Source of the DNA: Thermoproteota archaeon
GTDB taxonomy: Archaea > Korarchaeota > Korarchaeia > Korarchaeales > Korarchaeaceae
Length of the DNA stretch: 64,000 bases
Direction: 5' to 3'
Assembly (NCBI GenBank): GCA_026986575.1
Contig: JALSOH010000004.1
Location: 96,001 to 160,000 of the forward strand
Shown here: one piece after another, positions 48,535 through 64,000 of the stretch
Numbering within the stretch: the stretch's first letter is position 1
Layout of the letters: each line of letters begins with the position of its first letter
Program-made: the position numbers and the translations under genes
The notes under the pieces: generated by a model
The model's database searches: none
Told to the model about the DNA's origin: nothing
The model's input: the letters and a program-made list of their open reading frames with translations, nothing else

Positions 48535-50041
<1,507 letters not shown>

Positions 50042-50226
50042 ATTATAATACCAATACCAAGGCCTTCTGGGCCACCCACCCGTGATAGGGACATCCGGAC
50101 TCTCAGTCGGATGATGCTCCGGAGGCGCCACCTCCGGAGTTGAGGCGCAAATCCCGTTAGTTGCCCGCTAACGGGAAATGTGCGCCCCGCATAGTTGGCG
50201 ACGCTACAGGCTGGCGCTAGGTCGTT

Positions 50227-53250
<3,024 letters not shown>

Positions 53251-53470
53251 ACCGACCTAGCGCCAGCCGGCGTAATCGCCAACTATGCGGGGCGCGTTCG
53301 TTTTCACACATATATCCATGGAAAACTTTCCTTTCCTAGAGTCTAGGGTCTTTCTAAAAGCTGTTTCGAGCTTTACCCATTTCGTTAACTTCAAGGATTT
53401 ATTTCATTATTATCTCATAATTAAAGGGAAACTTATATTTCTCCCCCCCCCCAGAATCAGGGTGATCATA

Positions 53471-53773
53471 TTGAAGATATATGGGATTGAAAGAGAGGTA
53501 TTTGCACTTTCTCTCGCAATCCTGTTAATACTGCCGTTAGTAGCCAGTATACCAAACTCCATGGGTGTCTGGATAGGGACCTATGTAAGAACGTGGTCTG
53601 TGAAGCGTGCTCACAGGATGGCTAGCTGGGCGCTTGATCAGATTACCGATCCCATCGGATGGGCAATAGGACACCATACTTGGTACACACGCCTCGCATC
53701 TATCGCACTCATAGCTTATACTGGCATTGGACCTTATTACGCGGCATTCACGATAGGATTCACTGTAGGGTGA
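53471..53773 (+). CDS. Putative circular bacteriocin-like (archaeocin) precursor, 100 aa
   Basis: TTG start after GGTGAT SD; hydrophobic leader ending ..IPN, Trp/Gly/Ala-rich core; GTGA overlap with SpoIIM-like gene. Confidence 0.6.
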   Translation: MKIYGIEREVFALSLAILLILPLVASIPNSMGVWIGTYVRTWSVKRAHRMASWALDQITDPIGWAIGHHTWYTRLASIALIAYTGIGPYYAAFTIGFTVG

Positions 53774-54312
53774 CAGAAATTATTAGAACATCCTGTTTAC
53801 CCGAGTTTTTTATTCTAATCATTTATCTATCATCGTTTGTTGTAGGTACATGGCACACCTTTAACGAAAATGGCGCTCGGGATGGATCCTTCCATCTGAA
53901 GGATGTTAAAAATATTAATATAGATTACCTCGATTTCTTCAGGATGGTATTGTTAAATAATTTAGTGGCAGGTATCTTAATCATTGTGGGAGGATGGTTG
54001 TTCTGCATACCGACTCTCTTAGTCCCCATAGCTTCGGGTTACTTTGCTGGGCTTTACTTTGGAGCTGCTTACAGAGCTTATGGACTCTTCATTTCCTTAA
54101 TTTTGTACATTCCCATGCCCTTGGAGATAGCCGCCATAGTTATCCTAGGTCATGTATCCTTCAAGCTATGTAAGGAGAATCTCAGGAGATTAAGGGGAAA
54201 CGACTCGGATGCTCCTTTGCTCAGAGGCCATATTAAATCTATCACATACGGTATTTTCCTCATAGTTGTAGGTGCTGTGATCGAGACAGTTATTCAATTC
54301 TACATCGGTTAA
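53770..54312 (+). CDS. SpoIIM/DUF95-like membrane protein
   Basis: LNNL...G....IPT.....G...G, P..LEI.A, GAVIET motifs typical of the stage II sporulation M family. Confidence 0.75.
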   Translation: MTEIIRTSCLPEFFILIIYLSSFVVGTWHTFNENGARDGSFHLKDVKNINIDYLDFFRMVLLNNLVAGILIIVGGWLFCIPTLLVPIASGYFAGLYFGAAYRAYGLFISLILYIPMPLEIAAIVILGHVSFKLCKENLRRLRGNDSDAPLLRGHIKSITYGIFLIVVGAVIETVIQFYIG

Positions 54313-54342
54313 ATTCATGAATGAGATCGCCGAGGGAGATTT

Positions 54343-54936
54343 ATGAGGCTATTCTTTTCCTTCATGCTAGTGCTTCTCACGGGAATCATGGTACACCTTT
54401 ACTTCACTATGCCGTTCTTAAAGCCTAGTACCTCCACATACGCCGAAATGGATGTCCGCATTATAAGGGGATCTTTCCTACTCACTCCGGTATTTTCCAG
54501 CCTCATAGTCGTCCTGATATGGGCTGTGGAATCTTCTTTAGCCTCGCTCGTCATCAGAAGATCGGTGAGAGGGGCGGAAAGGTCCCACATAAATTTAGGC
54601 GTCATAATGAGCGAATTTTCCTTGGGATACGTTCCTGAATTTATCTTCCTCCTCATAATAGTCCCGCTCGTATGGTTCAACCTCCCTGAATACACAGTGA
54701 CCTCTGTGAAGGAGCTTATTAACGCATCTAAGAGCCTAGGAGAGTCTCCATTATACGTAAACGGGATGCTCGCTCTGATTGCTGTATCCATATCTCGCTA
54801 TCCCATATACGCAGCCATACTCAGATACAGATTGGATATAGGATGGAGGGAGACCCTCACTATCATCGCCCTGCTTATCATTGTTGATACACTCATAGCT
54901 TTGTGGGGAGGAGGGTTCGACTTAGGTAGGGGGTGA
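54343..54936 (+). CDS. Yip1-like multi-pass membrane protein
   Basis: About 5 TM segments, LGYVP motif; position in cluster. Confidence 0.55.
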   Translation: MRLFFSFMLVLLTGIMVHLYFTMPFLKPSTSTYAEMDVRIIRGSFLLTPVFSSLIVVLIWAVESSLASLVIRRSVRGAERSHINLGVIMSEFSLGYVPEFIFLLIIVPLVWFNLPEYTVTSVKELINASKSLGESPLYVNGMLALIAVSISRYPIYAAILRYRLDIGWRETLTIIALLIIVDTLIALWGGGFDLGRG

Positions 54937-54943
54937 GTTAGGC

Positions 54944-55591
54944 ATGAGAACTGAAGATAACCTCATCTTAGAGGTTAAAAGGATAAGTAAAAGGCTCGGG
55001 AAGAGACAGGTGTTAGCAGATGTGAGCTTCGACGTGAGGAATGGAGAGGTAGTCCTCATAAGGGGGCCCAATGGGTCGGGAAAGACGACGCTTCTAAGAA
55101 CCATTGCTGGGGTGTTTAGACCAGATTCCGGTCGAGTACTCCTATTGGGAAGGGATATTCACGAGGATATGGGTGTGAGGAGAGAAATCAGCTACTGTCC
55201 TGAGAGGCTAGGCCTTCTTGGGGATTACACAATCGAGGATAACATGATGTTCTTTACCAAAGTGTTCGGGAGATCGTTCGACGAGCACAGATTTAGAGAC
55301 TACGTGAAAGGGTTTCGGCTCGAGGGATACTCGGATGACAAGATATCCAAGCTCTCGGCTGGGACTAGGAAGAAGGTGGCTATCATCAGGACTCTCGTCT
55401 TCCCGGCTAGGCTGTACCTGCTTGACGAACCACTAGCTAACCTAGACGAGGAGAGCGTGAGCTTTTTAATTGAGGAAATTAGGAGAATGGCCGATCTAGG
55501 ATCTTCCTTCCTGATATCTTCTCACATAGAGTTCCCGGCTGCTGATCGTGAATTAGAGATGAGAGGTGGGGGACTTGTCGAGGTTAGGTGA
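54944..55591 (+). CDS. ABC transporter ATP-binding protein
   Basis: GPNGSGKTT, LSAG, YLLDEP, SSH. Confidence 0.93.
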   Translation: MRTEDNLILEVKRISKRLGKRQVLADVSFDVRNGEVVLIRGPNGSGKTTLLRTIAGVFRPDSGRVLLLGRDIHEDMGVRREISYCPERLGLLGDYTIEDNMMFFTKVFGRSFDEHRFRDYVKGFRLEGYSDDKISKLSAGTRKKVAIIRTLVFPARLYLLDEPLANLDEESVSFLIEEIRRMADLGSSFLISSHIEFPAADRELEMRGGGLVEVR

Positions 55592-56309
55592 CCTAATAGC
55601 GGGTCACCTCTACCTAATGGGTGGATTGACCAATGTCAGGGAGATCTTCGTGTTCTTGAGCCCACAGATCCTGTTTTTGGCACTAGCTGAGGTCATAGCA
55701 GGATCCAGGACGTATACAGAATTATTGATGGTTACTTCGTTGCTTGAGAGTTTTTCCTTAGTCATTACGTATATTCTCCTTGGTATCGTGGTGCCGGGGA
55801 GGCTAATCAGATTAAGCTACTCGATGAGAGATGCCGGAATGATGGAGATATTCCTGAATCAGGGGGTTGGATTGGATCAGGTATTGCTGTCTCTCTGGAT
55901 CGGTTCGTCCCTAAAATACTCCTTATACGTGATTGCAGGAAGCCTGATAGCCCTGCTCTCTTTATACCTAGCTGGATGGATGACAGTAGTCGAATTCCTA
56001 ACGGCATTGGGCGTGATCGCCGTCATGGTCACACTCTTCTCGGCAATTTGCATTACCCTATCTCTTATCCTTCCTCCCAGTGAAGCTCAATACTGGTCTC
56101 AATTAGTCTTTTTCCTGATCTTCGGATATTTATACTTAGGTTTCCTCAATCCCCGGAATTACAATGATATCGTGAGGCTCTTCTTGGGCGGATACTTAAA
56201 CCCCATGTCGCTGGGTGGAGGGGCCATAGCAACCTTTCTCGTAATAGTTTTACTGATAGGATTATCTGAGGAGAGGGGGGATATTATTGAAATTGATGAG
56301 GTTAAATAA
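55575..56309 (+). CDS. ABC-2-type permease-like membrane protein
   Basis: About 6 TM, RDAGMMEIFL motif resembling the ABC-2 E..G..E.LL. Confidence 0.65.
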   Translation: MSRLGDLIAGHLYLMGGLTNVREIFVFLSPQILFLALAEVIAGSRTYTELLMVTSLLESFSLVITYILLGIVVPGRLIRLSYSMRDAGMMEIFLNQGVGLDQVLLSLWIGSSLKYSLYVIAGSLIALLSLYLAGWMTVVEFLTALGVIAVMVTLFSAICITLSLILPPSEAQYWSQLVFFLIFGYLYLGFLNPRNYNDIVRLFLGGYLNPMSLGGGAIATFLVIVLLIGLSEERGDIIEIDEVK

Positions 56310-56973
56310 TCTAAATGCCCAAATCACCTTGGAATTGACTTTGCTTGTAAGGGGTAGGGGAAAGAGGATCGGGTGGTTAATTAGGGTACTCGTGGTCTCC
56401 ATGGCTGTGCTGTCGCTGGGTCTGCTAAGCTCACTGGAGTTGGGTAATCTCAAAAACATTTACCTATCACTCCCGGGTGTATGGCTCCTGTCTTCGGCCT
56501 TGATGATGGATAATACGGTCGAGATAAAGAATAGCGGTCTTGCTGAGATTTTGCTCCAGACATATGGGCCTTCATATTTGGGTGTGAGGTATCTCCTATA
56601 TACTGTGGTAACGATACTCCTATCAATATCCTTTATTTTGCTGGGAGGCTCTGTAGTTTCACTGATGGTTGGGATAGGATTATCGGGTTTGGATGCCATT
56701 TCCTTGCTATCTCTCTCCGTCATAGGTTCAACGGCTTTAATGACCGTTACAGTCTTATTATCGGTGAAAATTGGTGGCCTGAGGTTATTAGACACCTTTT
56801 CCCTAGCAAGTGGCGGACTTACCCTCCTCCTGATCATTTCCATGCCTTCTATATTGGAGGCGCTTAATCAAGAGTTGTTTGTTTGTATGTTGCTCGCTGG
56901 GACATTCTCCATAGCTGTTCTGACTATAGTGTACCTTAAGAGGCATGACTTTCCGGCATTATTAACAATCTAG
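56296..56973 (+). CDS. ABC-2-type permease-like membrane protein
   Basis: About 6 TM, EIKNSGLAEILL motif. Confidence 0.65.
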   Translation: MRLNNLNAQITLELTLLVRGRGKRIGWLIRVLVVSMAVLSLGLLSSLELGNLKNIYLSLPGVWLLSSALMMDNTVEIKNSGLAEILLQTYGPSYLGVRYLLYTVVTILLSISFILLGGSVVSLMVGIGLSGLDAISLLSLSVIGSTALMTVTVLLSVKIGGLRLLDTFSLASGGLTLLLIISMPSILEALNQELFVCMLLAGTFSIAVLTIVYLKRHDFPALLTI

Positions 56974-58074: not shown

Positions 58075-58275
58075 TTGTCTAAAGCCATATGGGTGAAGTA
58101 TGAGAAGGGGGTATTGAAGCCTCTGGAGGAGCTAGACCTCCCTGAGGGCGAGGTATTGCTTGTAAAGTTAATTGGGACACAATTGGCAGAGAAGGTATTT
58201 GGTTCCATAAAGGTCGATAAGGAGAGGCTCGAGCACTTTCTGAGGGAAGCTGAAGATGAGTTCGGTGTTTATTGA
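58075..58275 (+). CDS. Antitoxin, AF2212/DUF104 family
   Basis: YEKGVLKPLE.LDLPEG. Confidence 0.9.
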   Translation: MSKAIWVKYEKGVLKPLEELDLPEGEVLLVKLIGTQLAEKVFGSIKVDKERLEHFLREAEDEFGVY

Positions 58276-58690
58276 TAGTAATGTATTCATTAAATACTTT
58301 GCTGGTGACATAGAGGCTAGGAGGCTCTTAGAACCGATAATTTACGGAGATATGCAGGGCTACATTAATAACGTAATTTTCTCAGAAGTACTCTTCATTT
58401 CAGTAAAGCTTCTCACGGGAAGGAAAGCTTACGAATTAAAGAAGAATCCGGAAATAATCAAGAATATATTCGATAAAATAACGGATTACGTTCTCTTCCT
58501 ACGGCAATACTTCAAAGAGTTAGAGATAAATGAAGAGATAAAGCAATCGGCGTATGAAATAATCAGAGACTACGGGCTACTACCCAACGACTCCTTAATC
58601 GCGGCAACATGCAAACACTACGGCATAGATACCATAGTGACTTTTGATGTAGATTTCAGGCGTATACCGTGGCTCAACGTAGTTCCCTAG
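58256..58690 (+). CDS. vapC: VapC PIN-domain toxin
   Basis: FIDSNVF, SEV, YGLLPNDSLIAATC, TFD.DF. Confidence 0.93.
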   Translation: MSSVFIDSNVFIKYFAGDIEARRLLEPIIYGDMQGYINNVIFSEVLFISVKLLTGRKAYELKKNPEIIKNIFDKITDYVLFLRQYFKELEINEEIKQSAYEIIRDYGLLPNDSLIAATCKHYGIDTIVTFDVDFRRIPWLNVVP

Positions 58691-59320
58691 GTTTAGGTTT
58701 AGCTGATGAGTCCTAAGCTAGGAGGATATGCGGGAATGAGGCGGTGCAATGAGCACGTCCTGCCTCTTTTATTAGTGTGGTTATGGATGTTCATCGGTTT
58801 TGTTGTCACCAGCATTTTGTTAGCTATATTAAAAGGGTGTAGTTCACTTCAGAGCGTATCATCGAATTGTATAGCAATGAGCCCTACTTAGCGGTTTACG
58901 GCGAGATAACTAGTATGGGAGGGTTACCTCTCCCATCTCAATCCTATGTGGAGACAGTTTCACGATGTATGGTTTTAGAAGGCAGGGAATGCTCTGAGGA
59001 GCTTAGGGTTATTATCTATATTTGCCATTGTCATGTCAACATTGAGAACCATGCGGAGCGACTGATCCTTTGAGAGCTTTAACCTAAAGTTCCCCCTTAA
59101 TGTTTGGTATGCAGTATTGGGTGTCTTAGCTTACGGTTCTCTAGAGATTTTCTTTGTGGTATGGCTTATAGTAAATGTCTATAGGGTACCTAATAAGTGT
59201 GGAAGGTTATTATCTCATGAGCTACTCATCACTGCTACAATACTTAGTTTGTCGCATTTGGTACTATCCCCTGCAGGTGGAGATCAACGAGAAGGCTGGT
59301 GGGAAGGATTACCCCGTAAG

Positions 59321-59743
59321 TTATGGTCTACTCCCTTCTCCTCAGCCCACTTGATCAGCGATAATGCAAGCTTTTCTATGTCACTGTAGAGCTTATCCTC
59401 CAAGATTTTCCTCACGATATAAAGATCCACAGACTAATACTGATTGATCACAACGTTCCTGAATCTTATGATCTTCCTGAACAGCTCAGCCTCGGGATCG
59501 CTCAGGCAGCTCTCCCGTTTCAGGATCTGAGGGATTCCTATAACTCTAGGGGACAGCAGCTCCAACCTTCGAGGCTGTATGAGCCGTCAGAGCTATGAAC
59601 GCTTGAGATGCTAACTGGAGGGCGTGTAGAGCTGATAGAAGGAGAAACTTATCCTTTAAAATAGCGATTCCGTGTCTCTGAATCCCCTCATCCAGTAACT
59701 CGGTGCCCTCCCTGATGACTTATAGGAGCCTCTCGTTTCTCAT
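59321..59743 (-). pseudogene. Degraded DUF86/HepT-type HEPN RNase
   Basis: MRNERLL*VIREG...LHALQLASQA...P*SY / FRKIIRFRNVVINQY*SVD; three stops and one frameshift. Confidence 0.75.
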
Positions 59744-59950: not shown

Positions 59951-60466
59951 TTACCCTTCAGCTGAACTCTCTCCGCTTTCTTCACCGCTCCTCTTCTCCT
60001 TCCAAGGTTCTCTTAGTTCTCCTGGCTCTGAGAGCTTATCACCGTACTTGTAGAACAATATGTAGATGAAATAGCTCCCTGCCACTAAGAAGGCAAAGTC
60101 ACGAAGCTCTTTGCCGGGAATTAAGTCTGAGCTAATCCCCAGTCTGATGAGCGTATACGGATAAAGCACTACCATCATAACGTAGAAGGTTATCAGAGAG
60201 AAGAAGACGTATATGAGAGCATATCTCGTTCTCCTTACTTCCAGCATGTAGTAGTCGATCGCACCGATCAGCCCGAAGCTGGTAATTACTATGAGCACTC
60301 CTTCTATAAAAGGTAGATACCTGTTATTCTTACTGGCAACCGGAAAGTATGTAATGAAATGATAGATTAGCATGGCAAAAAGCATAAATATAGTAAATAA
60401 TATCCTCTCTTTGGATGATTTATTTGAACCTCCTACATCTTGAGGCCTTAAGGTACGCATTGACAT
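59951..60466 (-). CDS. 4-TM membrane protein, candidate immunity protein
   Basis: Four hydrophobic segments; overlaps the end of the Cys-rich precursor gene. Confidence 0.65.
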   Translation of the reverse strand: MSMRTLRPQDVGGSNKSSKERILFTIFMLFAMLIYHFITYFPVASKNNRYLPFIEGVLIVITSFGLIGAIDYYMLEVRRTRYALIYVFFSLITFYVMMVVLYPYTLIRLGISSDLIPGKELRDFAFLVAGSYFIYILFYKYGDKLSEPGELREPWKEKRSGEESGESSAEG

Positions 60467-61173
60467 ACCGTACCTACCTCGCTACAACATCCGCCATACA
60501 GGGTAAATACTAAGCAAAAGGGACACCAGACTATCAAGCATTCCCAGAATGCCGGAACATTTCTACAGCTAGCGCAGCAATTGAGAAGACATGAGATATT
60601 CCATCTACAGCAGTACGCGGAGCAACTGCAGTAGTCCCCACATGAATCATATCCTGGATATGCTGTGCAATTATGAGCGCAACTGCTCAAATTTATATAT
60701 GAACCATTGATGATTCTAGCATCAATTGATATATAGTCTTTATGAGAGCTGAGAATCAACGCTATACTTCTAATTTCATTGACTAATTTAGTGCCCTTCA
60801 TATAAATTAAATACTTTCTTTCCTTAAGTGGGATTAGAAGCAGTACTGCTGTGACTATATCTCCATCGACCGAAAATCTAATGAGCGAGCCTTTAGGTTG
60901 AGATGCCTTAAGATCATTTACATTAAGTGCGCCCCTCTCTATAAGAGAAATCACATCATTTGATTTTAAAGCCTCTGTAACGAAATTTTTGAGCTCTGCT
61001 CCCTCCAGTTTCATGTGATCCAATTCAACAAAATAGGGTTCATTTCTTAATCCTTTGTTCGCCTTTATTTTGAGATCTCCTGTACAAGTAATTGATACTA
61101 TGCTGAGAAGAGATGCCTTTAATGCTTCTTTAATAAACCTCCTTCTGCTCAAATTAATTCTCCATAGGCGCAT
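60448..61173 (-). CDS. Twin-arginine secreted precursor with Cys-rich C-terminal domain (halocin C8-like architecture)
   Basis: SRRRFIK Tat motif; 18 Cys in the last ~77 aa. Confidence 0.65.
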   Translation of the reverse strand: MRLWRINLSRRRFIKEALKASLLSIVSITCTGDLKIKANKGLRNEPYFVELDHMKLEGAELKNFVTEALKSNDVISLIERGALNVNDLKASQPKGSLIRFSVDGDIVTAVLLLIPLKERKYLIYMKGTKLVNEIRSIALILSSHKDYISIDARIINGSYINLSSCAHNCTAYPGYDSCGDYCSCSAYCCRWNISCLLNCCASCRNVPAFWECLIVWCPFCLVFTLYGGCCSEVGTVCQCVP

Positions 61174-61533
61174 GAGCGTAATAGACATTCCTGAAATATA
61201 AATTCTACGTTCTATTCCTATGCATTCTTTCCTTGAGAATCTCACCTTACCCTCTACATTTCCGCCCTCAGGCCATATCGCGTTTAGGGCTTCCTTGAAT
61301 CCTAGATCCGCTGATCTGAACAGTCTGATCGCAAGTTCCTTGAGGTAGAGACCAATTTGCCTCCTTTAACTTGGCCTTTATTAACTCTTTGTTCTTTCTC
61401 GCTTTTGTCTCCTTTATTCTCGTCTCTACGATTCTTCTGAGCTTCTCAGCGCGCGAATAGGATTATTAAAGTTCATCACAGATCTTCGGGAATTCGTTAA
61501 ATACTTCCCGAAGATTTAATGCTTGGAACCCTC

Positions 61534-61945
61534 ATGAGGGACGAAGCCAGAAGGTGGTTCTCTGAGGCGAGATGGAACTTGGAGACCGCTAGGATATTGC
61601 ATGATAGGGGAAGATACAACGCCGCTTGCTTTTACGCTCATAGCCGCGGAGATGGCTGTCAAAGCCCTCTTGATAAGCAGGAACGAGCCTCCTTGGAGCC
61701 ACGGCGTGAGGGCCCTGCTCGAGAGGTATTCGGAGATCAGTGGTGAGGACGTGTCCCTCCTCTTACCTCACGCCAGGGAGCTGGACAGGCACTACATCCC
61801 CTCCAGATATCCGAACGCCCATCCATACGGGACGCCCCACGAGGCTTACGACAAGCCAACCTCCATAAAGGCCATCGGAAGCGCGGAACTAATATTGGGT
61901 TACGTGGAGGATAGGTTGGATGGATCTCAGGAAGCTGGTGAATAG
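61534..61945 (+). pseudogene. HEPN-domain protein, frameshifted at about 61642
   Basis: MRDEARRW...YNAACFYAH / AAEMAVKALL...HGV..LDRHYIPSRYP; GCT CAT A GCC implies a 2-nt loss in the expected Gln codon. Confidence 0.85.
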
Positions 61946-62312
61946 GATAAGGGAGAGGTATAGGGTCTACGCGATCATACTCTTCGGCTCACGGGCCAGG
62001 GGAGACTGGCTCCCTCACAGTGATTACGATCTTCTCGTCGTGGCCGAATTCAAAGAGCCCTTCCTAGACAGGATCTACGAGCTCTCCGGATTGGCTAAGG
62101 GCCCTGTGGAATTCCATCCCTACACCCTCTACGAGGTGAGGGAATTACTGAGGAGGGGCGTTCCATCGATCGTTGATGCCCTCGAGGAGGGCATCGTCCT
62201 CTACGAGGGGGAGGAGTTCAGGGAGGTGAGGGAGCTTTTCGAGGAGATGAAGAGGAAGGGGCTCAGGAGGAGCGGTGTATCGATCATATTGCCCGGAGGT
62301 GATCAGCCGTAG
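61920..62312 (+). CDS. Minimal nucleotidyltransferase (MNT)
   Basis: ILFGSRARGD..PHSDYDLLVV, ALEEG. Confidence 0.92.
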   Translation: MDLRKLVNRIRERYRVYAIILFGSRARGDWLPHSDYDLLVVAEFKEPFLDRIYELSGLAKGPVEFHPYTLYEVRELLRRGVPSIVDALEEGIVLYEGEEFREVRELFEEMKRKGLRRSGVSIILPGGDQP

Positions 62313-63284
62313 GTCTCTTCCACGCCCCCACCCAGCCGGGGATCTGGTGTTCCCGAGTTTTATCGACCCTTCACCCTTCAATACGCTTCTAACGTCGGAT
62401 ATGAAGATCTGAGGTGTGTTGCAAGATCCCAAGCATCCGCAGTAGCTGTAGTAGGGACATGGATCCCTTTTCGTGTGGGTCATCATGTAGCTGACGAACA
62501 TGATACCTCCCAGATCCCTCAGCTCCAGCCCGCACGTCCCGTTAACTAGCGTGTTGGCGGAGCCGCACGACCCCCCGCAGTTCGCTGCTGGTTCACTGCC
62601 CGATAGGGTGATCAGCGCTACGCCCTCACCCATGCCCAAGAACCTCGCTCTGAAGATCATGTGAACGTCGCATGCCGTGCGAGGTGGTTTCTGTCTCGTG
62701 CACCCACTCGCCCTGCCATGTTCGTAGTAAAACCACCAGACATTCCCCTCGGGGTGCATGAGCCCGTGATATATCTCGTTGCACCTCCACATACCATCTC
62801 CGTAACCCTCTGATGGTCCGCTCAGCCTCCTCCACCCCTTCTCCTCCCTAATCCAGAGATCCGCGACCCCTCTCAGGGGGTCCAGTAGGGTGGGCGGTAA
62901 GTCGGCGAAGATCCTAGAAGGCACGCTGCTAAGGGCTAGCTCTGATGCCAGCATCTCGATATAGTGGATGTCGTGACTCCCGTTGAGGGACCATATTATA
63001 ACGAACGGGAGGGTCCTGTTGATTCGCTCGGCGTAATCGAGCAGCTTCCTTATCTCTAACCTGTTAAACCTGAGTGGAGGGACGACGAGGGCGAGAGAAC
63101 CTAGCCTCCTCCCGTATCTCTCGAATACCTCCTTCTCCTTGGCGTAATATTCAACGTCAGGGAGGGATTTGAGGAACATCTCCTTCACGGAATTCCCCCT
63201 AGGAGCTAAGCTTAAGACAAGTCCGCCGATGAGTAGGATAAGGAATAGAGAATTAAGAGCCCTCCTATCGACCGTGGGATCCAT
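62145..63284 (-). CDS. Hypothetical secreted/anchored protein with Cys-rich C-terminal half
   Basis: RR + hydrophobic N-terminus; NCGGSCG, CPYYSYCGCLGSC; 3' end overlaps MNT. Confidence 0.6.
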   Translation of the reverse strand: MDPTVDRRALNSLFLILLIGGLVLSLAPRGNSVKEMFLKSLPDVEYYAKEKEVFERYGRRLGSLALVVPPLRFNRLEIRKLLDYAERINRTLPFVIIWSLNGSHDIHYIEMLASELALSSVPSRIFADLPPTLLDPLRGVADLWIREEKGWRRLSGPSEGYGDGMWRCNEIYHGLMHPEGNVWWFYYEHGRASGCTRQKPPRTACDVHMIFRARFLGMGEGVALITLSGSEPAANCGGSCGSANTLVNGTCGLELRDLGGIMFVSYMMTHTKRDPCPYYSYCGCLGSCNTPQIFISDVRSVLKGEGSIKLGNTRSPAGWGRGRDLRLITSGQYDRYTAPPEPLPLHLLEKLPHLPELLPLVEDDALLEGINDRWNAPPQ

Positions 63285-63376
63285 GCATCCTTTCCTATGT
63301 CGTACCGGGTGCAATGTTATAAGATCTGATGCGCTGCCCTCGAGTCAGTTTTTAATTTCGAGGGGAGCAATAAATT

Positions 63377-63674
63377 GGGGGAGAGGAGGCCGGGGGTTAC
63401 GGCCGTAAGGCTGAGGAAGGTCCGCCCACGCCCCCAGCACCGCCTCCCCGTAAGGGGATGCCCCGAGAGGGGCAGGAAGGCCCACAGAAACGACACGTCC
63501 CTCGGGGCATGGCGATGATGCCGGTGAGGCAGAGGACCCCGAGGGGACCGGTGAAACGGGGCCCCGGCGGTGTGCAAGCCAGTCCCCGCAATGAGCAGCT
63601 GGGGCGAGCGGGGGGTAGGCGCTCAGCCGAATCCCCCAAGTACAGAAGGCGGACTATGGCCTCCACTCCCCCCC
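63377..63674 (+). ncRNA. rnpB: RNase P RNA
   Basis: GAGGAAGGTCC, CAGAAA, TGAAAC, GCAAG, ACAGAAGGCGGACTAT; paired termini. Confidence 0.93.
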
Positions 63675-63836: not shown

Positions 63837-63910
63837 AGCGGGGTGGGGCAGCCTGGTAGCCCGCCGGGCTCATAACCCGGAGGTCGGTGGTTCAAATCCA
63901 CCCCCCGCTA
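63837..63910 (+). tRNA. Initiator tRNA-Met(CAU)
   Basis: A1-U72, GGG/CCC anticodon stem, ct-CAT-aa. Confidence 0.93.
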
Positions 63911-64000
63911 CTTGAAAAGTTTTGACATTATTTCGTGTTTTCTGATGTATATTTTCCTATAAATCCGAGTTATTGAATAAAACCATCTATAACATCCCCT

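Follow-up and report, generated by a model that had tools for sequence, protein, structure and literature searches.

Introduction

Two kinds of described systems resemble the locus analyzed here, a pair of overlapping genes in a 64,000-nucleotide stretch of a Korarchaeaceae genome (assembly GCA_026986575.1, contig JALSOH010000004.1, positions 96,001 to 160,000; this whole stretch is called the window below). The upstream gene of the pair encodes a precursor protein with an export signal, a middle domain and a Cys-rich C-terminal domain, and the downstream gene encodes a small membrane protein. Bacterial polymorphic toxin systems such as the CdiA-CT/CdiI pair of contact-dependent inhibition (CDI) and the Rhs proteins are built from a conserved N-terminal part, a sharp breakpoint, a variable C-terminal domain and a cognate variable gene that lies immediately downstream. 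They also leave displaced orphan C-terminal fragments and orphan immunity-type genes behind, and both sets of features recur in the family of the window precursor. We consider it fairly probable, from sequence comparison, that the pair is a polymorphic two-gene conflict module comprised of an archaeocin and its immunity protein.

To our knowledge, nearly all known archaeocins come from haloarchaea and Sulfolobales, and we know of little work on antagonism among hyperthermophilic archaea such as Thermococcales, Archaeoglobales and those of the Korarchaeia type. The archaeocin that matters most for this comparison is halocin C8. Its precursor ProC8 (HalI plus HalC8) has the same order of parts as the window protein, namely a signal, an N-terminal domain and a Cys-rich, hydrophobic C-terminal domain. 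Both carry a twin-arginine translocation (Tat) signal, their N-terminal domains measure about 110-200 amino acids (aa) and their C-terminal domains about 76-77 aa. ProC8 differs in having 10 Cys in the C-terminal domain, against 14-20 in the window family, and the two Cys-rich domains have no profile similarity. The hosts of ProC8 are halophiles, whereas those of the window family belong to hyperthermophile-associated lineages. In current work halocin C8 is defined by the models TIGR04449 and PF22862, according to the accessible part of a recent preprint (10.64898/2026.07.27.741052).

The family also departs from CDI and Rhs in several ways. Its proteins are small (about 230-300 aa) and are exported by the Sec or Tat route, with no dedicated secretion machine. 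The variable part is a predicted disulfide-knotted mini-domain instead of an enzyme, and the partner is a polytopic membrane protein instead of a soluble binder.

The Gene Pair and Its Export Signal

Two overlapping open reading frames (ORFs) on the minus strand together occupy positions 59951-61245 of the window. The features of the pair are as follows.

60448..61173, minus strand: precursor gene, 241 aa plus stop, with signal, HalI-like middle domain and 18-Cys C-terminal domain
61060..61173, minus strand: predicted Tat signal peptide, residues 1-38 (read from the sequence; helix at 10-28 in the AlphaFold 2 model)
61129-61149, minus strand: SRRRFIK twin-arginine motif, residues 9-15 (read from the sequence)
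60685..61038, minus strand: middle domain, residues 46-163, with a strand, three helices and a six-stranded antiparallel sheet in the AlphaFold 2 model (predicted local distance difference test, pLDDT, 85-95)
60451..60681, minus strand: C-terminal domain, 77 aa with 18 Cys, the predicted variable "warhead" with a predicted maximum of 9 disulfides
59951..60466, minus strand: candidate immunity protein, 171 aa, with four hydrophobic segments, no Cys and the charged C-terminal tail YKYGDKLSEPGELREPWKEKR
61195..61202, minus strand: TATA-box-like TTTATATT, followed after about 25 nucleotides (nt) by the ATG at 61173 (read from the sequence)

The longest frame of the precursor (60448..61245) encodes 265 aa from a GTG at 61245, and the ATG at 61173 gives the 241-aa form that begins MRLWRINLSRRRFIK, the same form that is on public record as P0012. 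Archaeal promoters have a characteristic spacing between TATA box and start. Because the distance from TTTATATT to the ATG suits this geometry, the predicted mRNA would fit a leaderless transcript that starts at or beside 61173. The first 164 residues of the precursor contain a single Cys, located within the hydrophobic stretch of the signal, and the last 77 residues contain 18. Among all stop-to-stop frames of 50 aa or more in the 1.91-Mb genome, this tail has the highest Cys density per 80 aa (18, with 12 in the next frame), which is beyond chance. The twin-arginine motif, the largely Cys-free middle, the 18-Cys tail and the overlapping membrane gene are thus all present as the initial annotation, made from the letters of the window, had described them. 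Searches of Pfam and NCBIfam returned no family match for either the precursor or the membrane protein.

The Tat consensus is S/T-R-R-x-F-L-K followed by a moderately hydrophobic stretch, and SRRRFIK conforms to it by eye. It is followed by the weakly hydrophobic, uncharged 13-residue stretch ASLLSIVSITCTG and then by a possible I-K-A cleavage site. The AlphaFold 2 model of the full-length protein has the signal helix at residues 10-28 and a low-confidence linker at 25-44. The host genome encodes adjacent TatC (168 bits) and TatA (74 bits) on another contig (C6), both above their cut-offs. With consensus, moderately hydrophobic stretch and host machinery in place, the window precursor would be a Tat substrate, and the absence of a Tat system, which the initial annotation had named as an outcome that would speak against it, does not apply. 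The Tat signal holds for the window protein and does not extend to the family as a whole, since members from the phylum that holds Thermococcus and from Archaeoglobaceae have hydrophobic N-termini of the Sec type, which makes most members Sec-type.

A group of longer homologs (L019:4629-5513, identical to the L013 protein; L015:1483-2433; L020:171-1058; P0017; P0011) has an N-terminal CxxC motif that is followed by an internal RR/RK motif. In the loci scanned (L019/L013, L015 and L020), two predicted transmembrane (TM) helices lie ahead of this motif, so that the Tat-like motif precedes a third hydrophobic segment. The layout is reminiscent of actinobacterial Rieske proteins, which are inserted by Sec and Tat together. 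A DCC-type thiol-disulfide domain was suspected by eye at the N-terminus of P0010 and P0011, and Pfam gave no match for it at E<=0.1.

Family Size and Distribution

Word-seeded homology searches were too insensitive for this family and returned one protein with the window protein as query and three with the alignment A1. A full HMMER scan of 1.8 billion representative sequences gave 11 matches, of which eight are real clusters. The remaining three were judged spurious: P0006 and P0008 are repeat proteins by Pfam, and P0009 is a simple repeat sequence. The real clusters include a 94%-identical relative, a 40%-identical one from a sister species and a protein of Micrococcus luteus (P0011). Genomes were counted by six-frame searches with the family profile (A1 or A2). 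Of 133 genomes from the phylum of Thermococcus, 39 carry the family. It occurs in 4 of 43 genomes of the window's own phylum (2 of 21 in the window's genus) and, in the phylum to which Archaeoglobaceae belong, in 3 of the 401 genomes sampled. Named carriers are Archaeoglobaceae metagenome-assembled genomes (MAGs), a Thermococcus MAG, Ca. Methanodesulfokora washburnensis and a contig binned as Gammaproteobacteria. The last of these (L020, JALUUH010000072.1; 2383 bases, ~2.4 kb) carries a member with two membrane genes downstream. Its precursor is near-identical to the archaeal-type member P0003/P0013, and it is probably a mis-binned contig and not a bacterial gene. Degraded copies of the pair are found at L025 (G053:C109) and L080 (G519:C1), where the precursor gene is broken by stops or spread over several frames, with fragments of the membrane gene downstream.

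Every member is publicly named "hypothetical protein," as is OCC_09164 of T. litoralis, and a literature search on that locus tag found no paper that names it. A literature search on Thermococc* with Cys-rich polymorphic toxins and immunity returned unrelated systems only, and Makarova et al. (2019) lay outside its cover. The survey in the 2026 preprint, by the part of its text that is accessible, requires a TIGR04449 match, and the family therefore falls outside it by design (10.64898/2026.07.27.741052). From its sequences, the family would be a kind of halocin-C8-related precursor that the curated halocin C8 models do not cover, and it would combine a new warhead with a membrane partner and the dynamics of polymorphic toxins.

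A Coupled and Co-varying Membrane Gene

The membrane gene and the 3' end of the precursor gene have 19 nt in common (60448-60466), from which we predict that the two are co-transcribed and translationally coupled. Its hydrophobic segments lie by eye at about residues 22-44, 52-72, 82-105 and 121-140; a crude Kyte-Doolittle scan gives three segments instead of four. The same arrangement recurs throughout the family. In 42 of 46 loci a script found a small membrane-protein gene (58-171 aa) after the precursor, overlapping it in 23 cases, within 20 nt in 18 and further away in one. The remaining four loci have a membrane-like frame downstream by eye, partly broken by stops. The only detectable homolog of the window membrane protein is the gene at the same position in G007 (37% identity, E 1e-31), and pairwise BLASTP and phmmer comparisons across loci find similarity only for this pair and between Archaeoglobaceae and L020. 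A single immunity family is not definable because the proteins are mostly unalignable across loci, and none of them reaches a Pfam threshold. A predicted complex of the membrane protein with the C-terminal domain scored 0.00, which counts neither way.

The cassette behavior of the genes was measured over 27 loci of the Thermococcus phylum (351 pairs), with N for the N-terminal domain, C for the C-terminal domain and M for the membrane protein. Median pairwise identity is 62% for N, 24% for M and 42% for C, of which we estimate that about a fifth is the Cys scaffold. N identity exceeds C identity in 332 of the 351 pairs. When the comparison is restricted to the 73 pairs with N of at least 70%, M reaches at least 30% in 14 of 16 pairs whose C is at least 60%, compared with 5 of 57 otherwise (Fisher p 3e-9, a value that overstates the case because the locus pairs are not independent). 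The C-terminal domain and the membrane protein thus vary together, with four exceptions among the pairs that are taken up below, as the initial annotation had anticipated for a toxin and its dedicated immunity protein. Synteny and co-variation together give strong support to its proposal of a coupled membrane protein.

Individual loci show how the parts are exchanged. L048 and L059 share 91% identity in N, 39% in C and 22% in M, and L048 and L052 share 55% in N, 80% in C and 47% in M. This discordance of identity across the three parts demonstrates recombination. At the DNA level, sliding identity between L048 and L059 is 90-98% as far as the N/C junction and drops sharply beyond it. In L059 both the C-terminal domain and the membrane gene are new, and an orphan membrane gene of the L048 type persists at 97-99% nt identity. 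L048 in turn carries an orphan Cys-rich fragment downstream with its own small membrane ORF. Between the window and P0002, N is 26%, C 64% and M 35% identical, and the sister species (G007) retains only an N-truncated C-terminal domain with a membrane gene. As judged from sequence, the hallmarks of a polymorphic toxin/immunity system are all found in the family: a conserved N-terminal and a variable C-terminal part, a co-varying downstream gene, and orphan modules in relatives.

The Middle Domain Resembles the N-terminal Domain of Halocin C8 Precursors

True halocin C8 precursors were gathered by a TIGR04449 search of 401 genomes, 16 of which had a match. The middle domain of the window family aligns by hhalign with the N-terminal domains of methanogen-type halocin C8 precursors over 99 of 116 columns (probability 91.5, P 8.6e-7, score 44.2), and 100 column shuffles of the same comparison have a mean of 10.3, a standard deviation of 1.8 and a maximum of 15.8. 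The methanogen-type and haloarchaeal-type N-terminal domains of halocin C8 precursors reach probability 89.5 and score 47.4 in the same test. Going by these scores (44.2 vs 47.4), the new family is related to one branch of true precursors as closely as that branch is to the other. The match to haloarchaeal-type N-terminal domains alone is weak (probability 6.2, score 23.3, 29 columns). A whole-family profile (A7, 41 sequences) matches a profile of 13 TIGR04449-bearing precursors (A8) with probability 89.0 and E 2.3e-6 over 131 columns. A language-model search of the protein Atlas returned a "Halocin C8" cluster at feature score 0.84, which is below the 0.9 bar and serves as a lead only. These comparisons support remote homology between the middle domain and the N-terminal, HalI-type domain of halocin C8 precursors.

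The curated models behave differently. PF22862 (Hac8_like_N) has no match at E<=10 in the whole genome, nor in family members. It also misses 6 of the 8 TIGR04449-bearing precursors tested, and must therefore be a narrow model. TIGR04449, with its 24-bit cut-off, matches nothing in the whole genome at E<=10 (the control Haloferax volcanii was positive), nothing in nine family members at E<=10 and nothing in one member from the Thermococcus phylum at E<=1. The initial annotation had proposed a halocin C8-like precursor and an HMM comparison with the halocin C8 families. What stands of this proposal is the homology of the N-terminal domain (HHalign 89-92%, by profile-profile comparison), the Tat signal and the order of parts; the curated models find nothing, and the Cys-rich tail is unlike the halocin C8 domain.

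An Archaeoglobaceae genome (G203) contains a protein that links the two groups. Its 265-aa ORF (L043:570-1364, minus strand) matches the hidden Markov model (HMM) of the methanogen-type, HalC8-type N-terminal domain with E 6.7e-22 and that of the window family with E 2.1e-6. Its Cys-rich tail is of a third kind and matches neither TIGR04449 nor the window family. A three-TM protein follows the ORF, and an orphan C-terminal domain fragment of the window family lies just upstream. By these two matches the L043 N-terminal domain is a natural intermediate between the window family and the halocin C8 precursors.

The full-length AlphaFold 2 model, built from an 11-sequence alignment, has pLDDT 73.9 (60-78 in the tail) and a predicted template modeling score (pTM) of 0.68, and it packs the middle and C-terminal domains together. 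Foldseek with this model returned nothing at E<=1e-3, and a VIA structure search gave a best Z of 5.0 with weak cystatin- or barrel-like rows and no fold above noise.

Small membrane proteins were also seen beside true halocin C8 genes. In 3 of 13 such loci examined, a small four-TM gene (120-136 aa) lies 50-82 nt downstream of the precursor:

L027:1042-1419, minus strand: four-TM gene beside a halocin C8 precursor
L035:1089-1451, minus strand: four-TM gene beside a halocin C8 precursor
L041:1765-2175, plus strand: four-TM gene beside a halocin C8 precursor

In two methanogen-type halocin C8 loci (L036:173-1216, minus strand, and L039:1701-2792, plus strand), a fusion of thioredoxin and seven TM segments (~350 aa) lies just downstream of the precursor. 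DsbD_TM matched only in the L036 fusion (E 5.5e-10). Such a fusion would be a disulfide-handling membrane protein beside a Cys-rich bacteriocin.

The Cys-rich C-terminal Domain

Profile-profile comparison of the C-terminal domain with halocin_C8_dom gave a score of 9.0, which equals the shuffle mean (8.6), and 40 of 100 shuffles reach 9.0. The C-terminal domain is, by this comparison, a different module from the halocin C8 domain, so that the carrier would be shared and the warhead different.

The Cys residues follow a strict rule of parity. Their number is even in all 44 distinct C-terminal domains (14 in 7, 16 in 9, 18 in 23 and 20 in 5), as it is in all 46 ORFs before duplicates were removed. 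Individual pairs are also gained or lost together. In window numbering, C36 and C53 are both present in 39 domains and both missing in 5, and neither ever occurs alone. C31 and C65 are both present in 29 and both missing in 14, and in one domain a single member of the pair occurs. Even counts and paired gain and loss indicate disulfides rather than metal sites. Metal-binding and Fe-S families gave no match in Pfam or NCBIfam at E<=1-10. A metal-binding family, which the initial annotation had listed as an outcome that would overturn it, is therefore supported neither by the family searches nor by the Cys counts.

Modeled alone from a 44-sequence alignment, the C-terminal domain reaches pLDDT 80.5 and forms a helical hairpin flanked by two strands. 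Fold searches with this model found nothing significant (best Foldseek E 1.5, best VIA Z 3.2), and the lack of fold matches for either model does not show that the folds are new. The central helix-turn-helix (residues 26-64) superposes weakly on the plant alpha-hairpinin nigellin-1.1 (Foldseek E 1.5, root-mean-square deviation 1.9 A over 35 columns, VIA Z 2.4); this is not significant and no homology is claimed. Alpha-hairpinins and thionins, antimicrobial plant peptides with disulfide-stapled helical hairpins, differ in that the C-terminal domain is twice as long and has two additional strands and many more disulfides.

Proposed Function and Alternative Explanations

In the mechanism that we propose, the precursor would be exported, in the window organism by its twin-arginine signal, and on account of that signal its folding and disulfide formation probably precede or accompany export. 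The middle domain may act as a carrier, chaperone or pro-domain for the C-terminal part. Since it does not co-vary with the tail, a chaperone or pro-domain role is more plausible for it than that of a specific immunity factor. The 77-residue C-terminal domain, compact, hydrophobic and locked by up to nine predicted disulfides, would be the active part. Cleavage in the short linker that follows the conserved N-G motif may set it free, or it may be displayed on the cell surface, and it would attack the envelope or membrane of competing related archaea. The four-TM membrane protein would protect the producer against its own type of C-terminal domain.

Several points weigh against this proposal. 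Export route, cleavage, killing, target and immunity are predictions for every member, and the thermostability and toxicity of the C-terminal domain are likewise predicted. For the domain itself, comparisons detect resemblance neither to halocin C8 nor to a known toxin fold. The family is tied to halocin C8 by profile-profile scores near 90%, and the curated thresholds of TIGR04449 and PF22862 are not reached. In halocin C8, immunity sits in the N-terminal part of the precursor and not in a separate membrane protein, as the accessible part of the preprint has it (10.64898/2026.07.27.741052); for the window family the co-varying membrane protein is the better candidate. Four pairs of loci (L018/L042, L053/L054, L058/L065 and L058/L067) have C of 64-80% with M of 24-28%. 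Between the window and P0001 the C-terminal domain is more conserved than the N-terminal one (99% vs 93%), which indicates purifying selection at short range and not diversification. The window's own genome has one copy, and hmmsearch found no orphan modules in it. P0007, a 172-aa fragmentary relative outside the 44 domains, ends in a tail of half length whose 9 Cys are an odd number, and members from the Thermococcus phylum have an extra conserved Cys (KGC) in the N-terminal part, which makes their whole-protein Cys totals odd.

The pair may instead serve surface recognition or adhesion, in kin discrimination or cell-cell contact without killing, with the C-terminal domain anchored through its signal and bound to the membrane partner in cis or trans. 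A polymorphic recognition pair would be expected to have the same conserved N-terminal and variable C-terminal parts and the same co-varying partner. The strongly hydrophobic N-termini of many members may be uncleaved anchors, the longer homologs have two additional N-terminal TM helices, and the packing of the two domains in the full-length model does not require cleavage. We nevertheless regard this as unlikely, because orphan membrane genes that remain after replacement of the C-terminal domain, and cassettes of an N-truncated C-terminal domain with a membrane gene, are the classic pattern of toxin and immunity. Homology of the carrier domain to that of a proven bacteriocin precursor also points to antagonism, and the window signal is of the Tat type with a plausible cleavage site and is not a strong anchor. 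Improbable to a greater degree is an envelope or stress protein without antagonism, for example a disulfide-stabilized surface protein of thermophiles for which the membrane gene merely provides an anchor or assembly factor. The genomes searched do place the family mostly in thermophilic archaea (Archaeoglobaceae, Thermococcus and the family of Ca. Methanodesulfokora), and no toxin fold was recognized. However, only 39 of 133, 3 of 401 and 4 of 43 genomes carry it, its composition is foreign, degraded copies exist (L025, L080), and cassette swapping better suits an accessory conflict gene.

Least probable is a Tat-exported metal- or Fe-S-binding protein for redox or metal buffering, in which the 18 Cys would be ligands to a cofactor inserted in the cytoplasm. 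Tat substrates of non-halophiles are often cofactor proteins, the Cys density is very high, and the alignments contain a conserved CxxC...CPxC spacing. The internal RR after two TM helices in the longer homologs also recalls the actinobacterial Rieske proteins. A cytoplasmically inserted cofactor is an unlikely reason for the Cys since Sec substrates cross the membrane unfolded and most members are of the Sec type, which is incompatible with such loading. The even Cys number is kept despite the range of 14-20, with paired gain and loss apart from the one C31/C65 case, and no metal or Fe-S family was matched. A hypervariable, cassette-exchanged domain of patchy distribution is unlike a housekeeping redox protein. 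An archaeocin with its immunity protein thus remains the explanation that we prefer.

A wider scheme can be considered alongside it, and we put it forward tentatively, at somewhat less than even chance. The HalI-type N-terminal domain may be a general archaeal carrier for exchanged disulfide-rich warheads, each with its own membrane immunity gene. Halocin C8 would then be one branch of a much wider polymorphic system that serves hyperthermophilic archaea as their main peptide weapon and has crossed into bacteria. At least three kinds of warhead are seen on HalI-type N-terminal domains: halocin_C8_dom, the 14-20-Cys domain and the L043 type. Pointers to a crossing into bacteria are the Micrococcus luteus homolog P0011 and an Atlas structure cluster of 66 members whose known phyla are mostly Actinomycetota.

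Genomic Surroundings

The AT-rich composition that the initial annotation noted is real. The GC content of the pair is 0.401 compared with a genome mean of 0.529 (standard deviation 0.036), within the lowest 0.73% of 3168 windows of the same size. The low-GC stretch around the pair is full of small accessory genes. Low GC, patchy distribution and toxin-antitoxin neighbors support the accessory nature of the pair. The neighboring features are as follows.

48535-53257: rRNA operon, which flanks the pair on one side
58075-58690: AF2212-like/PIN pair, toxin-antitoxin genes
59284-59565, minus strand: two short ORFs, HepT-like fragments, directly downstream of the pair
61601-62312: HEPN/nucleotidyltransferase pair, toxin-antitoxin genes
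62145-63314, minus strand: 389-aa ORF with a hydrophobic N-terminal segment and a Cys-containing region, without Pfam or NCBIfam match
63381-63668: RNase P RNA, which flanks the pair on the other side
63837-63911: tRNA-Met, on the same flank as the RNase P RNA

The HepT-like fragment at 59434-59565 (minus strand; Pfam E 1.8e-4) looks like a broken toxin gene of the HEPN type. The 389-aa ORF shares 168 nt with the 3' end of the nucleotidyltransferase gene and may be either the first putative archaeocin of the initial annotation or a spurious frame; it was considered as a relative of the window family and is unrelated by hmmsearch. About 3 kb from the pair, the plus strand at 53659-56973 carries a gene for a SpoIIM-like membrane protein, one for an ABC-transporter ATPase (54944-55591) and three ORFs that match no family. 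ABC transporters are reported in halocin C8 loci in the accessible part of the preprint (10.64898/2026.07.27.741052).

Significance

TIGR04449 and PF22862 together capture only a fraction of the precursor superfamily, and small membrane proteins beside halocin C8 genes may be overlooked immunity factors. The family is common in Thermococcus and Pyrococcus, which are genetically tractable, and its members are small enough for synthesis. The C-terminal domain is predicted to be extremely stable, its roughly 80 residues containing a predicted seven to ten disulfides. Comparative genomics alone gives the full pattern of a polymorphic toxin and its immunity protein, and this would make bacteriocin-type warfare among hyperthermophilic archaea directly testable.

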